64,000 nucleotides of DNA, taken from contig CAWJKT010000010.1 in NCBI GenBank assembly GCA_963843375.1, forward strand, positions 96,001 through 160,000, in the 5' to 3' direction. The position numbers and the translations under genes are program-made. The notes below the pieces were generated by a model. The model had not been told where the DNA came from. It searched no databases and was given only the letters and a program-made list of their open reading frames with translations. Positions 40,701 through 52,020 of this stretch are shown in pieces. This DNA comes from an uncultured Pseudomonadota bacterium. Lineage in GTDB: Bacteria; Oederibacteriota; Muellerivitia; Muellerivitales; Muellerivitaceae. How positions within the stretch are numbered: the first letter of the stretch is position 1; each line of letters begins with the position of its first letter.

Positions 40701-41251
40701 AGGACTCGAAAGCTGCAGATTTCTCGGCCACTAAGGCGGTCGTGAAATATTTACATAAGGTCATGGAAATCAAAGACGAGGTCTATGTGGCTCATCTATT
40801 GACCAGCCCGGAGAAGTACGAGAAGGATGCCAAACGCTACAAGGTGGATTTGGCCAACGGTGACAGGATCATTTACAAGCACTTCAACCGCCCTCATTTC
40901 GATATTTGGGGAATGAACATAGAGTTCGATTTCAACAGTCGCGACTGGATGTTAAGGATAATGAAACACATGAAATTCCTACGCCGCCTCATGCCCGCAT
41001 GGCATAAACGCGAAAAGGGTTTTAGGGCCTGGTATGAAGCCCTAGTGGACCGTTTTGAGTACACTAGCCCCGAAATGTACGAGCGTTGGGTAGCTGTTCT
41101 TTCCTTGCCGGAGGAGGTCAGGGGATACCGTTTGGTTCGTTACCCCAAGATGGAACAGGCTATGGAACAAGCCGAGAAGATTCTTTCAGGAACAGCCTTG
41201 GCGCCCGCCTTCAATCCCGCCAACCCGCCGAAACAACTTTCTAAAGTTTAA
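37709..41251 (+). CDS. Single-chain indolepyruvate:ferredoxin oxidoreductase family protein (alpha+beta fusion)
   Basis: GYPGSP, FCPGCPH, GDSTFFHSG..DNKTTAMTG (TPP), C..C..C....C ferredoxin motif, GVGGMG, KDEVYVA. Confidence 0.9.
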   Translation: MDPRFVKDTGTETYTGNELILKGGLEAGMNLLTGYPGSPVADVFEAAVNATPYLKEHGILAQIANNEALSAARLNGAQMAGLRAITVMKSVGFHVAADALVAGSLAKKDHKGAGVIVIGDDPWSDTTQVPVDSRRLSDHLFIPVLEPATFQEIKDWIKVAFELSEEADLFIAYLLITYTAEGGGSVDVYPNQPPKGATTLNKVTIDSSKFDITHSIVLPPHTIPLEKEALEVKFPRLLESARAKGINKIIPAKEKSFAFITAGASYTYLEQALSEFGLSGKFPILKLGLTFPVDPQAVEEILKYSATLVVVEEKRRFIESQVRNIVMDLYQSGKLKEMPTVWGKSFPEGLEGFTEGKGLSPAVVMTTLAPLLKHFELSTPKVNKEIQFIKSLDDLEVNIPKRTPSFCPGCPHRDSSSVFLQLVADFKDPVYMKKNHKQGPLDILFHGDAGCYVLLFMPPNGPLMHNYIGMGLGGGTGAGLSPFSTNKSVCFIGDSTFFHSGLSEISDSIKNNQDVLYVVLDNKTTAMTGHQPHPGMESDLMGNPTFGQDIEKVLKGLTKGNDLTIARVNPEKRDDYRFLLEDMILEPGVKFVIADKECGITYHRRKRREVSQFKAKHGYLPVQKRVNVNDHTCEYCLECTRLTGCPGLAIEDTLYGPKMSTDLSYCVSDMACTRIKACPAFEELTIVRAHKLENPVLPDPGQIPEPQPFAFEEDWRGYIAGVGGMGIGSSTAVLVRAAEKHGYHITFCDKKGIAIRNGGVYSQVTFSKKKKVVSPLQPQGKSNLLLGLDILESARGLDPRLNFRMGSKQYTHSVVNTHKTHTILTLMGKDDFSPLELSELFKKYTMDYFGADMSAIAEHYLGNKVFVNVLLLGVAFQRGLLPVTLHEMVDSIKDNFNPSAAKHNIDAFHLGRDVAVHPEKYDAEVRLSFQEIVMKKTAFLGGKRAEVYLNMTKEFLKLWEGDEDTRVQFANRLYDLIEFEDPGYARKYLDRILATLQKDSKAADFSATKAVVKYLHKVMEIKDEVYVAHLLTSPEKYEKDAKRYKVDLANGDRIIYKHFNRPHFDIWGMNIEFDFNSRDWMLRIMKHMKFLRRLMPAWHKREKGFRAWYEALVDRFEYTSPEMYERWVAVLSLPEEVRGYRLVRYPKMEQAMEQAEKILSGTALAPAFNPANPPKQLSKV

Positions 41252-41405
41252 CAATGTGCTGAACCCCCGTTTTTCCTTCAAAAAAAACAGAGGAATGGAG
41301 ACGTTTCAAATTCCTTTGCGTTTAGAAAATCAGCATCTTGTTAATCAGGGAACTTAATCACCCACAACCAACTTTTTGGAACTTGTTCACTCAGGGATTC
41401 AATTC

Positions 41406-41978
41406 TCAATTAGGACGCGGATTTCTTCGCCAGAACTCAGAACTGGCCTCGGGCATTTTCTTGTAAATGTTGTTCAAATGCGTCTTCAGAGTGGCCTTTG
41501 AAATGGACAATCTCTTGACGATTCTGGAATTGGTAAATCCTTGGATACAAAGATTGGCTATTTCCAATTCCCGCTTGGTTAAATCTTTGTTCCTGAATCT
41601 CTTGAGCCATGCGTCATATTTCTGCTGGAGGGGATACAACATCACCATTCGGTAAGGAACCGCATTGAAAAAAAGAACGTCAAAAAACTGGTTTCCCACC
41701 TTTTGGTTCGAAAAATATTGTATCCCATCCTCGCCGAGGGGCCTCCCCAGGTTTTTTTCGCAGGACACGACACAGGTTTGTGGGCAATCCATTCCGGAAA
41801 AATTCCCGCAAAGTTTCTTGCAGACCAAGTTTTGGAAATAAACCCTGGTCCCCGACCTTAATAGGCAAATACTGGTGCGGTTTTTCTTTAGAGCTTCCTT
41901 AAACCAAACGATCATTTTCCACCCGGAGGGTTGATTGTGGGTTCGTTCCTTTAAACGGACAATGAACTCCTGTCGCAT
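41406..41978 (-). CDS. LuxR-type HTH regulator with a Cys-rich N-terminal sensor domain
   Basis: LTKRELEIA...GFTNSRI...ISKATLKTHLNNIYKK; N-terminal CKKLC..CPQTCVVSC. Confidence 0.8.
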   Translation of the reverse strand: MRQEFIVRLKERTHNQPSGWKMIVWFKEALKKNRTSICLLRSGTRVYFQNLVCKKLCGNFSGMDCPQTCVVSCEKNLGRPLGEDGIQYFSNQKVGNQFFDVLFFNAVPYRMVMLYPLQQKYDAWLKRFRNKDLTKRELEIANLCIQGFTNSRIVKRLSISKATLKTHLNNIYKKMPEASSEFWRRNPRPN

Positions 41979-42046
41979 TAAACGTTAAATGATTCTAAAA
42001 CAATATGATTCGCATCAGGTTGGGATAAAACTACCGGGGTGAAGCG

Positions 42047-42709
42047 ATGACCGCCGTAACTAATGGAATGACCGTTTATACCGCCAAACAGGAAATGGCC
42101 AACTGCTTAACGGCTGGAATGGGAGTTGTCTTGGTTGGTGCAGGAACCATCTTTTTGATCGTTTTAGCCTGTCTTGAGGGAAATGCCTGGCATGTCGTAA
42201 GTTTCAGTATTTATGGCGGAACACTAGTCCTGCTTTACTTGACAGCCACCCTTTACCACAGCTTCCGATCGCCTGGGGTTAAAAGGTTTTTTGAAAAACT
42301 GGACCATTCGGCGATATTCCTCCTGATAGCCGGCACTTATACCCCTTTCACCCTGGTAATTTTAAGAGGTGCCTGGGGCTGGTCACTTTTCGGGATAGTT
42401 TGGGGGATAAGCCTTTTGGGAATTGTTTACAAACTCTTATTCACCGGACGTCACCGGGTTTTTTCAACCCTTCTCTATATTGGCCTAGGTTGGATGGCGC
42501 TTTTGGCCTTTAAGCCCCTGATGTCCGCCCTTTCTATCAGAGGAATGATTTTGTTGTTCTTGGGTGGAGTCAGTTACAGTTTCGGGACGGTTTTTTACCA
42601 CCGAAAAAATTTTTATTACAGTCATGCGATTTGGCACCTTTTCGTCTTGACCGGAAGCCTCTTCCATTACTTTGCGATTTTGTATTACGTTTTGCCCACG
42701 AAAGTTTAA
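42047..42709 (+). CDS. Hemolysin III / PAQR family membrane protein (TrhA-like)
   Basis: TLYH, DHSAIFLLIAGTYTP, HAIWHLFV; 7 TM. Confidence 0.93.
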   Translation: MTAVTNGMTVYTAKQEMANCLTAGMGVVLVGAGTIFLIVLACLEGNAWHVVSFSIYGGTLVLLYLTATLYHSFRSPGVKRFFEKLDHSAIFLLIAGTYTPFTLVILRGAWGWSLFGIVWGISLLGIVYKLLFTGRHRVFSTLLYIGLGWMALLAFKPLMSALSIRGMILLFLGGVSYSFGTVFYHRKNFYYSHAIWHLFVLTGSLFHYFAILYYVLPTKV

Positions 42710-42733
42710 CCTCTAAAATATTTTAACTTTTGT

Positions 42734-43431
42734 TTGAAAGACAATTTCTTGATCGCCGTCGCGAACCCTTCTCCCCGCTGTTTGTTCGTTTATCCCCATT
42801 TTACTTCCCAGTCCTTTTGGAATTACCGAGCCACCTGTGAGGTGGTAGGTGCCAAATATCCCACAGCCCCCCTAGGACTTATCACCGTGGCAGCCATGCT
42901 TCCCCCGGAATGGGAAATTAGGCTTAGCGACCTGAATGCGGAGGAACTGGACGTACGGGATGTGGAATGGGCCGACATTGTTTTTCTTGGGGGAATGATT
43001 GCTCAACAGCCTGATCACTTATACCTCATCGATTATTTCAAATCCTTGGGGAAAATAGTTGTCGTGGGAGGCCCGACGCAACATCGAGTCCCCGCCTTTA
43101 CGATAAGGCCGACTATCTTGTGCTTGGGGAAGCCGAGGTGACAATGCCCCTATTCCTAGCTGATTTCGCCAAAGGTAAAGCCGGACATTTTTACGAAACA
43201 GGTGGTTTGAAAGCAATTATGGCTGACGGTCCAATGCCTCGTTTCAAACTGCTGAGGTTCGACAACTATCTCCATGTGGGAATCCAATGGAACCGAGGAT
43301 GCCCCTTCATGTTCAAATTTTGCGACATCATCGAGCTATTCGGACGGATTCCGCGTGGAAAAAGTGTGGATAAGGTGCTGGAGGTTGCATATATTACGGG
43401 TTGTTGCGATTTTACCGATTCTTTTGTGTGA
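42734..43431 (+). pseudogene. Truncated B12-binding radical SAM protein
   Basis: PLGLITVAAMLP and VVVGGP (cobalamin domain). RGCPFMFKFC lacks the middle Cys. Homology stops about 20 aa later, just before the MFS gene. Confidence 0.8.
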
Positions 43432-43449
43432 TTGAAGAATGGAGGGGAG

Positions 43450-44706
43450 ATGGAAGAGCAACCTGTAAAGTTGTACTCGTACAGATGGGTAGTGCTCGCG
43501 GTGTTCATGCTCATAAATGTCATGGTTCAAGTGCTGTGGATCTGTTACGCGCCTATCGCAACGCTGGCGGCCACCGCCTACGGAGTGAAGCGTGAAGACA
43601 TCGATCTCCTGGCGAACATGTTCATGCTTATCTACATCGTTGTCGCTTTCCCGGCGGCCTGGGCAATTGATACTTACGGTTTCAAGAAAGCGGTCGGATT
43701 CGGCGCCTCATTGATGGGAGCTTTCGGACTGCTCCGTGCGCTGTTTCCCACGAATTACACTATGGCGGTGGTGGGATCGATTGGTATATCGGTCGGACAA
43801 CCTTTTCTTTTAAATGCGTTCACCAAATTTGCTGCCCTTTGGTTTCCGCAAAAACACAGAGCAACCATAACGGGCGTCATTTTTCTTGCTGTGTTTTTAG
43901 GTATCGGGCTTGGCGAGGTGCTGGGACCAGGATTGGTTTCTGCCTGCGGTTTTGCAGGAATGCAGCTCATCTATGGAATTGTCTCGGCAGTTTCAGCCTT
44001 GTTGTTCCTTGTTCTGGCACAATCTGAGCCGCCAACACCGGCGAGCCCTCCGGGAGAGGAGGTTCGCGCGCTTGTGCTTGACAGCCTGAAGCAAATCCTA
44101 AAAAACAAAGACGTCTATATCCTCTCTCTCGCGCTGTTCCTGGCCAGCGGCATTGTGAACGGTGTGTTTACCCTGATTGACGGACTCGGAAAGGAGCTTT
44201 CGCTCACTGTAGACCAAGGTGTGCTGCTGACGGCTTTGTTGCTCCTCGGTGGAATCGTCGGTAGTATTGCGATTCCCGCGGTTTCGGACGCCTTAGGACG
44301 TCGGAAGCTGGTGCTGCTCATTTCGGTCTTTCTAGCAGTACCGGCCACGCTCGGTTTGGTGCTCGGGAGAGGCTTCGCATTCGAGATCATTTGTTTCTTT
44401 GTAATGGGCTTCGCGGTCACAGGCGTGACGCCGGTGGCCTATCAATACGGCGCTGAAATCACTTTTCCGGCTCCCGAGGGTACGAGCAATGGGATTTTCG
44501 CCCTGGTCGTACAGGCATCCGGTCTTCTGATAGTCCTGATGGACGCATTCCGGGGAACGTTCCATAACTCCTACATCCCATCGTTTGTAGGCCTCGCGCT
44601 GTTGCTGGGGGGAGCAGCCTTCCTCATGCTATCACTCTCCGAGTCCCCGAAGATGGCTCGATCATCGATAGCCGCTGAGTCGGAAGTAATATCAGACGGA
44701 CTGTAG
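43450..44706 (+). CDS. MFS transporter
   Basis: YRWVVL, 12 hydrophobic segments, GQPF..N, WFP..RAT, SDALGRRK. Confidence 0.92.
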   Translation: MEEQPVKLYSYRWVVLAVFMLINVMVQVLWICYAPIATLAATAYGVKREDIDLLANMFMLIYIVVAFPAAWAIDTYGFKKAVGFGASLMGAFGLLRALFPTNYTMAVVGSIGISVGQPFLLNAFTKFAALWFPQKHRATITGVIFLAVFLGIGLGEVLGPGLVSACGFAGMQLIYGIVSAVSALLFLVLAQSEPPTPASPPGEEVRALVLDSLKQILKNKDVYILSLALFLASGIVNGVFTLIDGLGKELSLTVDQGVLLTALLLLGGIVGSIAIPAVSDALGRRKLVLLISVFLAVPATLGLVLGRGFAFEIICFFVMGFAVTGVTPVAYQYGAEITFPAPEGTSNGIFALVVQASGLLIVLMDAFRGTFHNSYIPSFVGLALLLGGAAFLMLSLSESPKMARSSIAAESEVISDGL

Positions 44707-44776
44707 CGAAGCCCCTTGGCTAGTGGATAAACGGCGATCAAAGACCTCTTATGCCTTTATTAATGTGGGGTATTAA

Positions 44777-45151
44777 GTGAATCCAGTCCTCAAAAAACTC
44801 CAATTCAAGGGCCAAAGTCCCGTATTGTTGATAGCGGCTCCTGCGGAGTTTCGAAAGATCGCAAAAGATTTCAAGGTCCCACTTCATACCGACCCAAAAG
44901 GGCAATACGAATTTATTCTTTGTTTTGTCACCTCCTTGGCCGAAGGAGAAAAAATATCTAAACGCCTTAAAAAAGCGGTTGGTAAAAAGACCGTTATGTG
45001 GATTGCATATCCCAAGGGAACCTCGAAAAAGTACCACTCTGATTACAACCGAGATACTGGGAACGCACTGATGGAGAAGCGGGGTTTTACAGGTGTTTCA
45101 TTGGTGGCCTTGGATGCGGATTGGTCCGCAATGCGTTTCAAAATATTTTGA
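44777..45151 (+). CDS. Conserved hypothetical protein
   Basis: WIAYPKGTSKKY..DYNRD, VALDADWSAMRF, a recurrent small uncharacterised family. Confidence 0.75.
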   Translation: MNPVLKKLQFKGQSPVLLIAAPAEFRKIAKDFKVPLHTDPKGQYEFILCFVTSLAEGEKISKRLKKAVGKKTVMWIAYPKGTSKKYHSDYNRDTGNALMEKRGFTGVSLVALDADWSAMRFKIF

Positions 45152-45255
45152 TGAACCTGCAATTTATTATTCGGCCATCCCGAACAAAAAATCCATCTAG
45201 AAACAAGCATTTTTCTAATGACAGTTTTGATCACAATGAGGCGAGGAGGATTTAA

Positions 45256-45642
45256 ATGAGGATTAAGCTAAACAGCGTATTCGTAGACGACCAAGAAAAG
45301 GCTCTTAAGTTTTATACAGAAGTCTTGGGTTTTGTTAAAAAAGTTGATTTCCCCGTGGGGACATTTAAATGGTTGACGGTTGTCTCTCCTGAAGAACCAG
45401 ACGGAACACAATTATTGCTTTCGCCGAATGCCAACCCTACTTCAAAGACTTATCAAAAATCAATTTTTGAACAAGGAATACCTACCACCTCATTTGCGGT
45501 GGACGATGTTCAAAAAGAATATGAAAAGCTTAAAAAACTCGGAGTAAAGTTTAGGCAACAACCGGTAAAAATGGGACCGGTAACTCAAGCGGTTTTTGAT
45601 GATACCTGTGGAAACCTAATTCAGATTGCAGAGAAGGAATGA
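45256..45642 (+). CDS. VOC (glyoxalase/bleomycin resistance) family protein
   Basis: VDDQEKALKFYTEVLGF, FAVDDV, FDDTCGNLIQI. GAGGAGG SD. Confidence 0.93.
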   Translation: MRIKLNSVFVDDQEKALKFYTEVLGFVKKVDFPVGTFKWLTVVSPEEPDGTQLLLSPNANPTSKTYQKSIFEQGIPTTSFAVDDVQKEYEKLKKLGVKFRQQPVKMGPVTQAVFDDTCGNLIQIAEKE

Positions 45643-45649
45643 AAGTCTT

Positions 45650-45662
45650 TCCACAACGGGGA
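45650..45662 (+). repeat. 28-bp palindrome family, copy 1 (left half only)
   Basis: TCCACAACGGGGA, 7 nt after the VOC stop, merging into the GGAGG SD of the next gene. Confidence 0.6.
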
Positions 45663-45672
45663 GGGTAAAAAG

Positions 45673-46455
45673 TTGAAAATAATCGGAAAAGAAATATTGG
45701 TAGTGCTGGGACTTATAGTCGCTATAAGCATTCCAGCGTATTTACTCCGACTTCTCTTTAAGTACTACGCTTTGTTTTCGTCCGTCGACCCCTTTGGGAC
45801 TACTTGGAAAGGAGTGTGGATCCTTCAGGCCTCTACCTTGGTGGGCGTTCTCGTGACCGCCCTCTATACGAGCTGGCTGTTCTCCCTAAAACCCTGGCAA
45901 GGATTTGAATTCATGGGATTCAAAAAGCCTGATGGGAAACAAATCCTAGTTGCTTTATTGGCTTCTTTGCCTACCGCTTTGAACATGTGGTATGCCCTTC
46001 ATTCAAGTCCTGGCGCAGCTTTGATTCAGGGTTGGGGACCCCACCTTCTTTTTTCTTTTCTTGGTAACGGGGTTGTCGAGGAAGGCTTTTTTCGCGGCTT
46101 TTTCTACCATTATTTTCGAATGAACCACTCTTTTGAGGGAGCTGCTTTGGGTTCGAGCCTTCTTTGGAGCTTGGCGCATCTGTCAATGTCCAGTGCCTTC
46201 GGCTCTTTTTGGGTCTCCATGATCTTGGCCCTCGTTTTGGGTTTCCCCTTTGCCTACCTTTTTGAAAAAGGGAAGAATGTCCTTTGGGGCTGTATGCTGG
46301 TCCACATGGTTCTTGATTCATCCCAGTTATTCAAAAATCCAGATGGAACCGGTCTTAATTTAGGAAATCTCCAGGTTGTGAGTCTTTTGCTCACCACAGC
46401 CCTTATTTTTATTCTGCCAAGATGGGTTATGAAATCGGATCGATCAATTCAATGA
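45673..46455 (+). CDS. CPBP (Abi/CAAX-like) intramembrane metalloprotease
   Basis: EEGFFRG, WSLAH, H...D motifs; multi-TM. Confidence 0.88.
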   Translation: MKIIGKEILVVLGLIVAISIPAYLLRLLFKYYALFSSVDPFGTTWKGVWILQASTLVGVLVTALYTSWLFSLKPWQGFEFMGFKKPDGKQILVALLASLPTALNMWYALHSSPGAALIQGWGPHLLFSFLGNGVVEEGFFRGFFYHYFRMNHSFEGAALGSSLLWSLAHLSMSSAFGSFWVSMILALVLGFPFAYLFEKGKNVLWGCMLVHMVLDSSQLFKNPDGTGLNLGNLQVVSLLLTTALIFILPRWVMKSDRSIQ

Positions 46456-46458
46456 TAG

Positions 46459-46488
46459 ATGTCCACGACGGGGACCCGTCATGGACAT
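46459..46488. repeat. 28-bp palindrome family, copy 2 (full)
   Basis: ATGTCCACGACGG-GGAC-CCGTCATGGACAT, 3 nt after the CPBP stop. Confidence 0.9.
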
Positions 46489-46533
46489 GGAAATATTAGT
46501 TAATGAGGACTACGTTTTTCGAAGGGAGGCGTT

Positions 46534-47081
46534 TTGAGAAAAAACAAGGCCTTTTCAAATGATCTCGGGACTTTGCCCGTCACTATTTATGGAGGGGTTC
46601 CAGGCGCATTGTCGTTGTTCGGGTTGGGATTTTGCCTGGCATTTATTGTCGTCTTTTTACAAGTAACTGGGGACATTGTTCCCTTGTGGGCATGGCTGCT
46701 TTTTGGTTCCATGTCTTTTTTTATGTTTTTAATGGGAATGGTGATTCTTGAAAACCGCATCCAGGTTAACGAATCGAGTTTGTCCTTGTCCCGCATGCAC
46801 TGGAACCTATTTTCCCCGCCATACTTGAAAATTCCTTGGGCCGACATCCGGAAAATCGATGCCAGCCAAAAGAACATCAAACCCGGCCGATATGGCCCTA
46901 ACCAAATAACGTTGGTCCAAATTTTTCACAGCAGCTCGGAATAACCAGCGGAGATAAACGTAACCTTATTCAAGTCGAATCCCCAATGGCCAGTTATCGA
47001 AAAACCATCCTAGAGAAAGTGGGTGAAGTTCGGATCACGGAATCGGCCGGAAGGATTTTGGGGCGGGCGAGTCTTCATTAG
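46534..47081 (+). CDS. Hypothetical membrane protein (2 TM plus soluble domain; probably frameshifted after 46944)
   Basis: GGAGG SD with TTG start. The ORF stops at 46944, but a coding-like frame continues to TAG at 47081. Confidence 0.55.
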
Positions 47082-47086
47082 AAACT

Positions 47087-47120
47087 TGCCCACGACGGAA
47101 ACCCGTCGTGGACACCTAAA
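47087..47120. repeat. 28-bp palindrome family, copy 3 (full) plus CCTAAA extension
   Basis: TGCCCACGACGG-AAAC-CCGTCGTGGACA-CCTAAA. Confidence 0.9.
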
Positions 47121-47142
47121 TTTAGAATTGTGTACATAATTA

Positions 47143-47170
47143 TTGACATAGTAATAAGAAGCATTATATT
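47143..47170 (+). promoter_or_regulatory. Putative sigma70 promoter of the TA module
   Basis: TTGACA-N16-TATATT. Confidence 0.6.
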
Positions 47171-47211
47171 GAAGGGGTCGAAGGTTTTATAGCTTTCAAG
47201 AAGGTGGTCTT

Positions 47212-47490
47212 ATGCGAGTCGCGGGAGTAAGAGAATTTAGGGATCACGCGCCGGAATTTTTGAGCGGCGACGACCTTGTCTTTGTGACCAAACACGGGAA
47301 GGTTGCCAGCCTTTTGGTTCCGATGTCTAAGTCGCAGGAACTTCCCTTGGAATTGCGGAGGGAGCTTTTAACGAACCTGGGTTCTTCCATTTCAAATCAC
47401 CTCAAAAAATCAGGCGTCACTGAGCGGACGGTAACACATGACTTTGAAACATGGAGAAAAAGCCACCGGGCAAATCGCCGCGGACGCTAA
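47212..47490 (+). CDS. Phd/YefM-like antitoxin
   Basis: MRVAGVREFR...VFVTKHGKVASLLVP; overlaps the downstream PIN gene. Confidence 0.8.
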   Translation: MRVAGVREFRDHAPEFLSGDDLVFVTKHGKVASLLVPMSKSQELPLELRRELLTNLGSSISNHLKKSGVTERTVTHDFETWRKSHRANRRGR

Positions 47491-47869
47491 CGTCCTCCTT
47501 TCCGCCGCAACCGGGAGGGCCGCTCTCAAAGTTTTCATCCATTCCAACCTTGAAGTCATATCCACATCCTTGAACATCAAAGAAGTTTGGGAATATCTTC
47601 CCGTAATGGCCGCGAAATATGGAATAGCCCCTGAACTCATGGAAAGCCAATTTCAATTATTAGCTGTCAGGGAATACGAACTCAGGGATTACCAAGGATC
47701 ATTGGCTATAGCTCGAAGAAAAATTGGAAAACGAGACCCGGATGATATTGATTTGCTGGCTTTATCTCTTGATCTGGGAATACCCCTGTGGTCAAACGAT
47801 GGTGATTTTTCGGGAACCGGCGTTGAATGGTATACCACGGCTCAACTTCTTAAAAAGTTAGAGCTTTAA
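47438..47869 (+). CDS. PIN-domain (VapC-like) toxin
   Basis: ADANVLLSA, RDPDDIDLLAL, LWSNDGDF acidic motifs. Confidence 0.9.
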   Translation: MTLKHGEKATGQIAADANVLLSAATGRAALKVFIHSNLEVISTSLNIKEVWEYLPVMAAKYGIAPELMESQFQLLAVREYELRDYQGSLAIARRKIGKRDPDDIDLLALSLDLGIPLWSNDGDFSGTGVEWYTTAQLLKKLEL

Positions 47870-47877
47870 TATGCGGC

Positions 47878-47902
47878 TTTAGGTGTCCACAACGGGGACC
47901 CG
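47878..47902. repeat. 28-bp palindrome family, copy 4 (left arm, loop and start of right arm) with TTTAGG extension
   Basis: TTTAGGTGTCCACAACGGGGACCCG; 18/20 match to the reverse complement of 47101-47120. Confidence 0.88.
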
Positions 47903-48046
47903 GAATGACAGGCTACTTGTAAGGTTTTACATCTTCATTAAGGGTCATTTGGGCGACGAAAAGGCTACTGGGGCGGGCACTTGTCGCCAAAATGGATTAA
48001 GCATAAAATGCTTTTAATTGTCAGGAAGAAACCAAAAGGCATTGAG

Positions 48047-48346
48047 ATGAAAACAGCCATCCAAATCGACAAAGAAAAAATAGCTGAAATATGCCGAAGA
48101 CACCATATCCAAAGGCTGTCCCTTTTTGGATCGGTCTTGCGGGATGATTTCAAGCCCGACAGCGACGTGGACGTACTGGTGCAATACCAGCCGGGCCAGG
48201 CCGTTGGTTTCGAGGTTTTTGACATCGAAAAGGAACTATCGGACCTGTTTGGCCATGAAGTGGATTTGGTGACTGAAAAATACCTTAATCCACGCCTTCG
48301 GGAACGCGTGCTCAATTCGGCGGAAGTCCAGTATGCAGAGGGATGA
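48047..48346 (+). CDS. Minimal nucleotidyltransferase (MNT) antitoxin
   Basis: FGSVLRDDFKPDSDVD (GS-x10-DxD), VDLV. Own promoter TTGTCG-N17-TAAAAT at 47981-48009. Confidence 0.92.
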   Translation: MKTAIQIDKEKIAEICRRHHIQRLSLFGSVLRDDFKPDSDVDVLVQYQPGQAVGFEVFDIEKELSDLFGHEVDLVTEKYLNPRLRERVLNSAEVQYAEG

Positions 48347-48671
48347 CCGGGTTTATATCGGTCATATGTTAGATACGGCCAAAAAAGCCATCCTGAAAAT
48401 TCAAGGCCGGAAACAAGAAGAGTGCGAAGCGGACGAGGATTTTTGCATCGTCCTGGCCCATTACGTTCAAACTTTCGGGGAGGCCGCCCGACATGTAAGC
48501 CCCGCCTAACAATCCGCTCACCCCAATATTCCCTGGGAAAAAATCATCGGGACGCGCCATAAAATTGTTCACGATTATTTGAGCGTGGATTATGGGGTCG
48601 TCCTGGGGGTTGTCTTCAGGGAATTTCCACCGTTAATCCCCATCTTGGAAAAATACCTGGCCGAGATTTAA
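48333..48671 (+). pseudogene. HEPN/DUF86 RNase toxin with an in-frame stop
   Basis: [46 protein letters not shown]; TAA at 48507-48509 precedes the R-x4-H motif. Confidence 0.85.
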
Positions 48672-48706
48672 ATTCGAGTTTTCGGGCTTATTTTGCCGAA
48701 ACAACC

Positions 48707-48734
48707 TGTCCACGACGGGGACCCGCCTTGAACA
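48707..48734. repeat. 28-bp palindrome family, copy 5 (right arm degenerate)
   Basis: TGTCCACGACGG-GGAC-CCGCCTTGAACA. Confidence 0.88.
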
Positions 48735-48815
48735 AAGAAAAAGAACTGATTTGGCGGTCTGAAATGTGGAGTCTCTCGATTGCGATTTCTGGAAAAAGGT
48801 CGTAGGATTTAGGTC

Positions 48816-49166
48816 ATGCAAAAACTGATTTTGATAATTCAACGAATGGTCTTGGTGTTTGGGTTCTTGGTGTCCCTGGTGCCCTGTTATGCTTGTCAGC
48901 AAGAATCAACCCCTATGAAGGCTTGTTCTATGTGCCACATGGAGCTTCCGATGAGTTGCTGCCATCACTCCAAGCCGACGGATCCCTTGTGCCAAATTGT
49001 GAACCAGCCGGCAGTTACACTTTCCTCAGTAAATCCGTCGATTGCGGCCACTACGGTGACTGCAAAAAGAATATTTCAACCGCCGTATTTGCCGATATTT
49101 AAGGCGGCTCCGGTTATCCAAATCGTTGAATCTCCTCCACGAAGTTCTCCTGTCCTTAGAATCTGA
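48816..49166 (+). CDS. Small exported Cys/His/Met-rich protein with a Pro-rich C-terminus (putative metal-sensing leader)
   Basis: Hydrophobic N-terminus, CSMCHMELPMSCCHH, C-terminus ESPPRSSPVLRI. Promoter TTGCGA-N17-TAGGAT ends 7 nt before the ATG. Confidence 0.7.
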   Translation: MQKLILIIQRMVLVFGFLVSLVPCYACQQESTPMKACSMCHMELPMSCCHHSKPTDPLCQIVNQPAVTLSSVNPSIAATTVTAKRIFQPPYLPIFKAAPVIQIVESPPRSSPVLRI

Positions 49167-49244
49167 TCCATTCCTTTTGCGGTTGTGAAAGCGAAAGCCG
49201 GTTGGCTTCCGCTTAATTGCGCTTTTGCGCTCAAAAGGAGTGGG
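49167..49244 (+). promoter_or_regulatory. SD-sequestering RNA stem
   Basis: TCCATTCCTTTTG (49167-79) pairs with CAAAAGGAGTGGG (49232-44; 2 GU pairs) and covers the AAGGAG 7 nt before TTG 49248. Confidence 0.7.
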
Positions 49245-49247
49245 ACC

Positions 49248-50621
49248 TTGAAAAGCTTAAATAAGTACTCATCCGATTTTTTACCTGTACTTGGGCGGTT
49301 TTACCGCCCAAGTACACGACTTCTGCTATTGCCAGTCCTGACGGCTGTTTTCTTCATTTCACCCTGTTTTATTTCGGGTCTTTGGGCCGACTCGATGATG
49401 GACAAAATGATGCCTTCCATGAAAGAAGACGGCATCCTTTTGAATCCTACCCCAGACTTAGGTGGGATGGAACTGATGGACGTGGATATGCAGATGGTCA
49501 TGCCCTTCGCCTTGCCCCACATGCCCATGAGCATGCTGATGCTTCACGGCTATGGTTTTGGGGAATGGATCACGGAAGACGGTGCCCGTGGCCGTACGGC
49601 TTTTTCAGGACCCGACATGTTCATGGCCGATCTTGGAACGACCCTGGATGACCATCAATACCTCAACTTGGACTTAATGCTGACCAGCGACCTTTGGGCT
49701 GTGCCTGCCGCAGGAATCCCCGAACTCCTGCAAATCGGCGAGGACCAGGCCAACGGCCAGCCTTTTATCGACGCTCAGCACCCACACAGTTCACCCATCA
49801 TGGGCTTAACTCTCAGCGACACCTTTACCTTGGACGCAAGTGATAAAAGTGCCCTTAAATTATTCGTTGCGCCCCGGGGCGAAAGTACCGACGGGCCAAT
49901 CGCTTTTATGCACCGGATTACAGGCATGGTTAATCCTGACGTGCCTTTGGGACACCATATCGGCCAAGACGTAGGTCACATTACGAGCACCGTTTTGGGC
50001 GAGTCGCTAAAACTGGGTAGCTTCCATATCGAGTCCTCGGTTTTTAACGGTTCGGAACCCAACCCTACTCAGGTGGACCTACCCATCGGCCCGATCAACT
50101 CAGTGGCAGTCCGGGGCATTGAGGAATTTGCACCGAACATCATGCTCATGGCTTCTTACGCCTGGGTGGGTACGCCCGAGCCGGGCATCGCCAATGACCA
50201 GCGCTATTCCGCCTCCCTTTACACGCACACCCTACTTAGCGACACATGGACTTTTCATAACACACTTATCTATGGGGGTATTACCAATATCGACCACGTA
50301 TTCCAGTTGAGTTCTTTTTTGGATGAGTTTTTATTCAGTAACACTGTGGAAGACATATTCGCGCGCGTCGAAGTACTTCAACGCACACCGAATCAATTGG
50401 ATATCCCCGACATTCCTAACGGCAATACGGGCCAATGGGTGAGCGCTTTGACGTTGGGGTACAGCCATCAGCTTGAGGCCTGGGATGGATGGGAATTGAG
50501 GGCGGGATTTTCCGTGACCAACGACCAGCTTCCCGTGGACTATCAGGCATCTTATTCAGGAAACCCCTTTACCTATAAAGTGTTCTTCCAGTTGGGAGGC
50601 ACCCAGTCTTATCAGCTTTAA
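49248..50621 (+). CDS. Exported Met/His-rich protein, probable outer-membrane beta-barrel (metal-related?)
   Basis: Signal-like segment then DSMMDKMMPSM..MELMDVDMQMVMP..HMPMSMLM; QHPH, PLGHH..GH; amphipathic beta pattern in the C-terminal half. Confidence 0.65.
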   Translation: MKSLNKYSSDFLPVLGRFYRPSTRLLLLPVLTAVFFISPCFISGLWADSMMDKMMPSMKEDGILLNPTPDLGGMELMDVDMQMVMPFALPHMPMSMLMLHGYGFGEWITEDGARGRTAFSGPDMFMADLGTTLDDHQYLNLDLMLTSDLWAVPAAGIPELLQIGEDQANGQPFIDAQHPHSSPIMGLTLSDTFTLDASDKSALKLFVAPRGESTDGPIAFMHRITGMVNPDVPLGHHIGQDVGHITSTVLGESLKLGSFHIESSVFNGSEPNPTQVDLPIGPINSVAVRGIEEFAPNIMLMASYAWVGTPEPGIANDQRYSASLYTHTLLSDTWTFHNTLIYGGITNIDHVFQLSSFLDEFLFSNTVEDIFARVEVLQRTPNQLDIPDIPNGNTGQWVSALTLGYSHQLEAWDGWELRAGFSVTNDQLPVDYQASYSGNPFTYKVFFQLGGTQSYQL

Positions 50622-50662
50622 GCGAGCAGTGATTTTAAATAAATAAAAAAAGGGAGCGGAAA

Positions 50663-51031
50663 ATGAAAAAGGCAATGATGATTTTGTTGGCGGCGACGTT
50701 GATGGTTTTAGCGAGCGTTAAATTATGGGCTCATGGAGATGATAAAACATCCGATCAAAACTTGACAGGGGAAGTGGTCTGCCTTAACTGCTATTTGGCG
50801 CATGGGGGACAAGGGAATGTCCATGTCAAATGCGCGAAACAATGTTTTGTCAAGGGTTTGCCGGTTGGTTTGAAAGTCGGGGAAAAACTTTATTTGTTGG
50901 TGGGGGAAAAACACGGAACCGCCAATAAGATGATGGCTCCCTATGCCGGGAAACAGGTTACGGTTTCCGGCCATCTTTTTGAGCAAGAGGGAATGAGTAT
51001 GTTCGAGGTTGAAAAAGTTAAAAAAAATTAA
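50663..51031 (+). CDS. Secreted Cys/His-containing small protein
   Basis: Signal peptide ending WA-H; CLNCY..H....H.KCAKQC..G.PVG; OB-like VTVSG. Confidence 0.75.
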   Translation: MKKAMMILLAATLMVLASVKLWAHGDDKTSDQNLTGEVVCLNCYLAHGGQGNVHVKCAKQCFVKGLPVGLKVGEKLYLLVGEKHGTANKMMAPYAGKQVTVSGHLFEQEGMSMFEVEKVKKN

Positions 51032-51099
51032 GGCTATTGCTGAATAATATTTTTGTACCTTAAAGTAAAGTTTAATTTTTTCTGATTATTGGTTATTAT

Positions 51100-51981
51100 T
51101 TGGCCGTGACCCGCTACTTTACCAACAAACAACTATTAAACCCTCCCATCAAACGTGCAGCCTATTCGGATCGCACCGCCTGGATCATGTCACAATGCTC
51201 CGAATTGGCCTATGTAGAAGAACCTGTTTTGTTGAAGAAGAACTTGGCTGAAGGGGATTTCACCCTTCTCAAAACATTCGTCTACCAACCCAAGCGCATG
51301 AACGCCTACCTGGCCCTATCTATCAAGCACAAGTTGTCCGTATTAGCTTTTAAGGGCACTGTACCTTCCGAATGGCCCACGGTTCAGGTTGATTTGGATT
51401 TTCGCTATTACCACACGAAAAATGGGGTTTTTCACCAGGGATTTTATGATGCTTTCAAAGCTATGGAAAAACCCATCAACCGAAACCTAGGGTTAGTGCG
51501 GGGACTGCCCATTTACATTACCGGACATAGTCTTGGAGGCGCATTGGCGACCATGGCGGCCATGAACCTGACCGAAACCGACCGAGTGGCAGCCTGTTAC
51601 ACTTTCGGTGCGCCCCGCATTTGCGACCTGAAAACCATCATCCATTTTTACAAAATACCCATTTATCGGGTGGTCCATGCCGACGATATTGTACCGTCCC
51701 TGCCGCCGCCTTCAATGTTCGGAGGCTATGCCCAGATCGGCGACCTACGCTATATTACCGATAATTTCGAGTTGATCCCCGGTAGCGCGGCGGTTTGGTT
51801 GCGCTTATGGCTTCAAATTAAAAGCTTCCTCCTCTTGCGTTGGAAGAATTCTATTGCGGATCACATGATCGACTTTTATGCAAAGATTCTGCAAAGGATT
51901 GCCGAGGACAGAGAAGAACGTCGACTGCGCCATAAATTCGGGAAATTGGCTTCAAATATATTTGCAGCAACTAAAAAATAG
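51100..51981 (+). CDS. Lipase class 3 family protein
   Basis: AFKGT, HQGF, GHSLGGALA, TFGAPR, DIVPSLP, DH. Confidence 0.92.
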   Translation: MAVTRYFTNKQLLNPPIKRAAYSDRTAWIMSQCSELAYVEEPVLLKKNLAEGDFTLLKTFVYQPKRMNAYLALSIKHKLSVLAFKGTVPSEWPTVQVDLDFRYYHTKNGVFHQGFYDAFKAMEKPINRNLGLVRGLPIYITGHSLGGALATMAAMNLTETDRVAACYTFGAPRICDLKTIIHFYKIPIYRVVHADDIVPSLPPPSMFGGYAQIGDLRYITDNFELIPGSAAVWLRLWLQIKSFLLLRWKNSIADHMIDFYAKILQRIAEDREERRLRHKFGKLASNIFAATKK

Positions 51982-52020
51982 ATTCCAACGTTCCAATTAG
52001 ATCGCGAGAAGTTTCTCAAA

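Follow-up and report, generated by a model that had tools for sequence, protein, structure and literature searches.

Gene cassettes bounded by a 28-bp site in an uncultured bacterial family, with a short serine recombinase as candidate enzyme

A stretch of 64,000 nt of DNA from an uncultured bacterium, here called the window, carries unrelated gene modules that are each followed by a copy of a palindromic repeat of 28 bp. The question raised by this locus is whether the repeat is a joint at which genes are exchanged and, if so, which enzyme acts on it. The window comprises positions 96001-160000 of contig C10 in genome G000, which is 80% complete; genomes (G000-G030), contigs (C#) and loci (L###) carry the labels used in the analysis. 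A sequence-only reading of the window had proposed a repeat-bounded gene-cassette system, distinct from integrons, whose recombinase lies outside the window. This proposal holds insofar as modules change their neighbours exactly at the repeat. We conclude that the cassettes are almost certainly mobile and that they move on a site which is neither attC nor dif. The repeat is the joint between cassettes, and it is probably also where crossover is carried out by a shortened serine recombinase whose gene lies in another part of the genome. A literature search, with subscription journals and supplements outside its coverage, gave no description of this system.

Exchange of cassettes at the 28-bp site

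The repeat was searched in G000 and its relatives. A weight-matrix scan of G000 returned 88 sites at a score of at least 13 (1 in the shuffled genome) and 86 at a score of at least 16 (0 in the shuffled genome). The sites cluster in arrays, a point that the sequence-only reading had proposed to check: for 74 of the 86 the next site is no more than 6 kb away, and 12 are solitary. Most of them (71 of 86) follow a co-oriented open reading frame (ORF) at a median gap of 33 nt, and neighbouring sites are co-oriented in 388 of 402 pairs from all fetched arrays. Two arrays converge head to head at C6:18597-24571 in G000, and one perfect site is inverted inside the large C9 array (C9:261806). The site was present in 26 of 30 genomes of the same family of uncultured soil bacteria (FCPU426) and in the single genome of the same order, with a sequence that is nearly constant across genera, and was absent from 29 genomes of other phylum members outside the order. 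A GTDB-wide scan gave at least 168 rows, and the 80 listed are labelled FCPU426, Firestonebacteria, 'uncultured bacterium' or 'proteobacterium'; the five genomes checked, three of them 'proteobacterium', yielded the same numbers of matches as genomes that the family already includes. No match to the site was obtained in viral contigs, and a search with the neighbouring MFS gene was also empty. Among 55 array ORFs scanned (chosen from 80 listed), 12 matched families named as toxin-antitoxin (TA), and the remaining ones were GNATs, oxidoreductases, regulators, beta-propellers and unknowns.

A cassette opens with a right half-site, continues with 0.3-3 kb of cargo and closes with a left half-site. 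From 14 genomes, 387 such site-to-site cassettes were cut (median 834 bp), and matches over at least 90% of both lengths were obtained for 58 pairs. Both neighbours were unrelated in 54 of these pairs, one neighbour was shared in three, and one pair had one-sided data. Nine pairs aligned from the first to the last base at 96-100% (four within one genome, five between genera), and 100% identical cassettes were found in G001 and G025 (975 bp) as well as in G022 and G026 (388 bp). The TA cassette of the window recurs whole in G005 (86%) and G023 (81%), again among unrelated neighbours. Whole cassettes thus recur from site to site in different surroundings. Since the genomes are metagenome-assembled, mis-assembly of a single pair is possible, but the number of pairs and their exact ends argue against it as a general cause.

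The point of exchange was located by comparing variants within the site with the DNA on either side. From 608 distinct sites, 591 with flanks were taken, 25 abutting group II intron ends were dropped and 566 were kept; flank clusters were built at 95% identity. This gave 17 clusters with common upstream DNA only and 16 with common downstream DNA only, while no pair had both in common. Positions 19-22 vary in 9, 8, 6 and 6 of the 17 upstream clusters, compared with 2, 1, 1 and 0 of the 16 downstream clusters. Variants at position 11 travel with the upstream DNA and variants at positions 16-18 with the downstream DNA. Because the arm variants follow different flanks, these data show that the exchange falls within positions 12-15. 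Position 19 had at one stage seemed to follow neither flank, which arose from sites adjoining group II introns that have since been removed. Base pairing between the two arms equals the expectation from base frequencies (e.g. 0.515 compared to 0.500 at pair 10-19, 435 sites). As the arms do not covary, the element is likely a duplex site with two protein-bound half-sites and not a selected hairpin. The evidence favours a site of 13-2-13 bp, with a short serine recombinase as its enzyme. A resemblance to resolvase site I found no backing in the literature searched and is left aside. The site also serves group II introns: one of them splits it between positions 11 and 12, and others lie ~2 nt beyond an arm, in several copies per genome (intron loci: G000 C9:135155-137123; L365, L370, L373, L375, L377).

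A short serine recombinase at the array end

A Resolvase search in G000 led to a 281-aa protein (C9:137160-138005) with the Pfam Resolvase and Recombinase domains only. It belongs to a clade of 19 clusters (275-283 aa, 69-98% identity), all with PF00239 and PF07508 only; an intact gene of G001 lies at C2:163827-164663. Zinc ribbon and coiled coil were found in none of the 19 members, which all end at 275-283 aa; for seven intact genes the stop codons of the short genes were seen in the DNA. The next relatives share at most 61% identity, and the complete ones among them mostly measure ~520 aa. In a quick tree, in which the outgroup row L315 has an aberrantly long branch, the 19 members lie on one side of a branch (SH-aLRT 99.8). 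Judged by dN/dS values of 0.05-0.18 among the seven intact genes, with synonymous sites often near saturation, the clade is under purifying selection. The motifs YVRVSS and DRLYR are invariant in the clade, and the predicted fold matches the SPbeta, Bxb1, phiC31 and LI integrases.

The gene is placed tail to tail with the last site of an array. An opposed site was found 8-36 bp past the stop at 13 of 14 gene 3' ends (seven intact genes and seven remnants), and the 14th contig ends inside the site. At 78 other metagenome homologue loci no site was present. In G000 a 1.9-kb group II intron interrupts the site beside the recombinase, between its positions 11 and 12. A tRNA gene stands at the same end in four of the six full-length relatives tested and in none of six short-clade loci, and a target at the 3' end of the gene therefore looks ancestral on comparison of these loci. 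The recombinase gene closes the array: of the five intact copies in genomes, four lack a site over 7-40 kb on their other side, and three of those four have ArdC-like genes there.

Genes for ArdC, NYN-like, RadC-like, helix-turn-helix and pRiA4b ORF3 proteins recur near the recombinase and at array ends (G000 C9:138816-146356; L361-L363, L366), which suggests a mobile carrier; the Pfam check of these genes concerns ArdC and pRiA4b ORF3 only. The DNA upstream of the recombinase could not be aligned across copies, and no shared promoter or accessory gene was found in it. The right half-sites beside intact recombinases (L363, L364, L365, L366, L381, L411, L216) mostly carry 4-6 mismatches, where the mean is 2.2. 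Remnants of one such end are present in three genera. This is possibly a platform-specific half-site.

In our judgement this short serine recombinase is the likely enzyme that moves the cassettes. A dimer would bind each 13-bp half of the duplex site and cut at the central GA. Since the asymmetric GA would set the orientation, two co-oriented sites would excise a circle with one hybrid site, and the excised circle could re-enter at any other site. Loss of the domains that tell attP from attB would cause all sites to be treated alike. Mobile DNA with ArdC genes is probably its vehicle, and arrays without an enzyme would stay behind when it moves on. TA cassettes probably limit cassette loss. 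Passages of a study on LI integrase report that the recombinase domain contacts 13 bp per half-site while the zinc domain binds further out, and that a coiled-coil deletion recombines (excises) all four site pairs tested (PMC3783163). By analogy, an enzyme without zinc ribbon and coiled coil would be expected to use a site of ~13-2-13 bp and not to tell site types apart, as seen here.

Several observations weigh against this assignment. An intact enzyme was found in only 5 of 31 family genomes (and intact members of the clade in none of 68 other genomes of the phylum), although sites are present in 27 of 31. Almost identical cassettes also turn up where no enzyme was found (G021, G030). The 14 adjacencies of gene and site share ancestry and are not independent, and the structure model is modest (pLDDT 66). 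Passages of the same study state that LI integrase without its zinc domain binds ~25-fold more weakly and that no intermolecular integration takes place without the coiled coil (PMC3783163); in the part bearing on the coiled coil, PMC5499577 agrees on its role. From the behaviour of these deletions, the model predicts excision well, but it accounts neither for efficient insertion nor for the first gain of half-sites by a new gene. As for the crossover, the breakpoint data do not separate a 2-bp from a 4-bp overlap. Positions 9 and 10 vary in 2 and 3 of the 17 clusters with shared upstream DNA and position 15 in one, and the left-arm signal is weaker than the right-arm signal. The centre reads GA in 573 of 608 sites, a conservation that is partly built in by the search pattern. 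No circle was seen in contigs: for the largest array, contigs from four runs gave two site-to-site joints, and the short side of these joints has only 26-29 letters, which are the repeat itself. That the intact gene is rare agrees with a mobile enzyme which moves on from its arrays and orphans them, as proposed in passages of PMC8618304 for clusters of attC sites lacking integron-integrases (CALINs), but it also keeps alive the alternative of a host enzyme.

Other enzymes and known cassette systems

According to this alternative, the cassettes are moved by an Xer-like tyrosine recombinase or another host enzyme not yet identified, and the short serine recombinase is a passenger or the integrase of one mobile element. 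The Xer-like enzyme would use the site in an 11-6-11 geometry, as the sequence-only reading had considered. An Xer-like orthologue is indeed present in 29 of 30 family genomes and in the same-order genome, a distribution much closer to that of the site than the distribution of the serine enzyme is, and a site that hardly changes between genera would suit a host enzyme. On the largest contig of G001, the fetched parts contain 27 sites, every one of them directed away from dnaA, which would suit it too, but this polarity is explicable by leading-strand gene bias and is read here as such. The Xer-like gene has a conserved, unrelated AT-rich motif of its own just downstream, and no 28-bp site lies within ~1.5 kb of it at 30 loci. 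The same left arm occurs together with right halves of differing sequence at positions 16-17, which would lie inside a 6-bp spacer, whereas passages of PMC13141974 state that pdif recombination needs identical or nearly identical spacers. A passenger cassette should also have a site at its other end, where four of the five intact recombinase copies have none over 7-40 kb. We therefore consider a host enzyme unlikely, and the tyrosine/dif geometry gives way to the 13-2-13 arrangement. In G000 the Xer-like gene (C10:182408-183469) is followed by the AT-rich motif at 183606; the gene is family-wide and single-copy (L185-L214), and the motif is a candidate dif site of a one-recombinase system, with another motif of this kind at C10:207331.

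Action of an HUH (RAYT-like) or IntI-like enzyme on a single-stranded hairpin is very unlikely. The consensus does fold as the 12-4-12 hairpin that had been put forward, and the insertion of group II introns at the site would agree with it. However, copies 2 and 3 are the only ones of the five window copies that fold in this way, and the arms lack covariation. No Y1 transposase (PF01797) was found in the 80%-complete G000, the relatives not having been searched for it, and the motif GTAG precedes only 17 of 608 sites. The enzymes that had been suggested for the repeat thus fit poorly. An IntI search (TIGR02249, 1e-40) matched in none of 31 genomes, but the control genome also gave no match; the Xer-like protein scores 73, compared to a cut-off of 265. 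An ordinary palindrome of the repetitive extragenic palindromic (REP) or mRNA-end type, with short repeats whose chance recombination reshuffles the modules, would explain why sites stand just after stop codons, why a genome has ~86 copies and why 12 of 86 are solitary. Hundreds of copies after housekeeping genes had been pictured for this case; the ~86 copies found are clustered among accessory genes. Moreover, different genera share identical cassettes whose two ends coincide exactly with sites, the exchange takes place only in the site centre, and a T-run follows only 22 of 605 sites. The lack of a terminator U-tract and of the GTAG tag, both noted from the window, is borne out at most sites, and we regard a REP-like origin as highly improbable.

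G000 has 14 matches to tyrosine recombinases. Six of them are paralogous integrases of ~370 aa (58-66% identical; C6:226038, C8:84965, C8:179354, C9:31181, C11:49933, C11:206672), several with a small excisionase-like ORF before them, and three tandem matches at C8:95096-98359 resemble a recombinase-in-trio. The paralogues were rejected as the enzyme: a solitary site is found at 1.4-3.3 kb from three of them, but none abuts a site. Another tyrosine recombinase, 1.2 kb from the end of the C18 array, was rejected since it does not abut the site as the serine gene does.

Among known systems, sedentary chromosomal integrons and CALINs are described in passages of PMC8618304 with the same tandem co-oriented cassettes of one or two ORFs and one site each, the same TA, GNAT and unknown cargo, enzyme-less clusters, and group II introns that use the sites. 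The arrays differ from these in having no attC. An attC site is recombined as a folded bottom strand and has the ends RYYYAAC...GTTRRRY. Here the site is a fixed 28-bp element with other ends, as the sequence-only reading had noted, it shows no sign of selection for folding, the exchange takes place at its centre, the candidate serine recombinase stands tail to tail with the last site of the array, and no attI or Pc was identified. Acinetobacter pdif modules, which depend on XerC/XerD, likewise have 28-bp sites that bound shuffled accessory modules with the crossover inside the site; in the parts of PMC13141974 on these modules, sites alternate in orientation and have distinct C and D arms and matching 6-bp spacers. 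In contrast, the sites described here are co-oriented, GC-rich, chromosomal and tolerant of change at positions 16-17. Large serine integrases (LI/A118, Bxb1, phiC31, SPbeta) share the catalytic and recombinase domains and the fold, as far as covered by passages of PMC3783163 and PMC5499577. A target at the gene's 3' end is shared as well, as in the tRNA-adjacent full-length relatives of the candidate. The candidate has ~280 aa instead of ~520, without zinc ribbon and coiled coil, and is accompanied by dozens of copies of one short site type instead of one attP/attB pair. REPs are also short intergenic palindromes in tens of copies. They carry a GTAG tag and are associated with a Y1 (RAYT) gene, whereas here the tag is missing, no Y1 gene was found, each module has one copy and exchange takes place at the centre. 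The array is integron-like, but its sites are not attC, differ from pdif in orientation and spacer, and lack the marks of REPs.

The array in the window and its wider meaning

The consensus pattern that the sequence-only reading had written for five copies has no exact match in the window. Five related elements do stand at the places named (Table 1), of which copies 2, 3 and 5 are complete but degenerate, copy 4 is one base short and copy 1 is a half-site. As had been described, all five point in the same direction and lie shortly after stop codons (gaps of 5, 4, 5, 14 and 33 nt for copies 1-5), and the scan revealed no further copy in the rest of the window. Rfam gave no match over positions 41000-52000. 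Copies 1 and 4 had been taken for truncated scars. This applies to copy 1, which is not due to chance, because its left-half score is reached at 80 real places genome-wide compared to 4 shuffled ones; a suspected right half-site upstream of the VOC gene was not significant (score 3.5, 8e-4 per base). Copy 4, by contrast, is a full site with the loss of one base, its right arm being a common variant minus that base. Its upstream flank is common to L057 and L139, both of which then run into different DNA. Should the enzyme be a serine recombinase, the AA centre of copy 3 is predicted to make it incompatible with GA sites.

Table 1. Features of the window array, with repeat copies scored against the 28-nt site consensus (window positions)
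Feature	Position	Strand	Remarks
VOC/glyoxalase gene	45256..45642	+	Pfam; left half-site after gene, no significant right half before
Copy 1	45648..45662	+	left half-site only, covering positions 1-15 of a 28-bp frame at 45648-45675; left score 17.3
CPBP (Rce1-like) membrane protease gene	45673..46455	+	Pfam
Copy 2	46460..46487	+	full site, 1 mismatch to consensus
Membrane-protein gene	46534..47081	+	apparently broken; no Pfam match
Copy 3	47087..47114	+	full site, 3 mismatches, central AA in place of GA
TA cassette	47101..47897	+	centre to centre
Promoter-like site of TA cassette	47143..47170	+	
Putative antitoxin of TA cassette	47212..47490	+	
PIN toxin of TA cassette	ending 47869	+	
Copy 4	47884..47910	+	left arm intact, right arm one base short
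MNT antitoxin and HepT genes	48047..48673	+	MNT 48047-48346, HepT 48333-48673; Pfam
Copy 5	48707..48734	+	last site of array, 3 mismatches

The cargo named from the letters was recovered by Pfam for VOC, CPBP, PIN, nucleotidyltransferase and HepT. The putative antitoxin of the TA cassette had no match in Pfam or NCBIfam, the membrane protein had none in Pfam, and the HepT gene is broken by an in-frame stop at codon 59 (48507-48509). The membrane-protein module has an in-frame stop at 46942-46944, 142 nt before copy 3; further on, a different frame reaches its stop 5 nt short of this copy. Of the promoters ascribed to the two toxin modules, that of the TA cassette matches 11 of 12 consensus bases, whereas the 9 of 12 matched by the MNT site are no more than chance would give (4 such sites found, compared to 4.9 expected). 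A relative of the CPBP gene is located in another array of G000 (C9:95010-95361). In G001, a genome of the same genus, the flanks are syntenic, and window positions 41251-51070 are replaced by ~70 kb that has its own sites and none of the modules of the window. A gene for a B12-binding protein, apparently in pieces, lies at 42734-43431 inside the region absent from G001. With one half-site, one changed centre, one base loss and two broken genes, the window array would be a decaying, enzyme-less orphan.

We lean towards regarding these arrays as a third, independently evolved cassette platform beside integrons and dif modules, in which a tRNA-targeting large serine integrase turned into a one-site shuffler. 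In full, this reading includes the loss of zinc ribbon and coiled coil, arrays of dozens of cassettes traded between genera, and a 280-aa enzyme that both excises and inserts on a 28-bp site. If true, it would amount to an independent invention of the integron idea with serine chemistry. Integrons are the main known case of stockpiling single-gene cassettes, and a second route would show convergence. A natural 280-aa integrase on a 28-bp site would directly test the need for the zinc-ribbon and coiled-coil domains, because laboratory deletions lose binding or integration, and so short a recombinase might serve as a compact tool for engineering. Should the assignment of the enzyme fail, there are still mobile cassettes on a non-attC, non-dif site. 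Tools based on attC would miss such arrays, which would be a new reservoir of genes for TA, stress and possibly defence functions.

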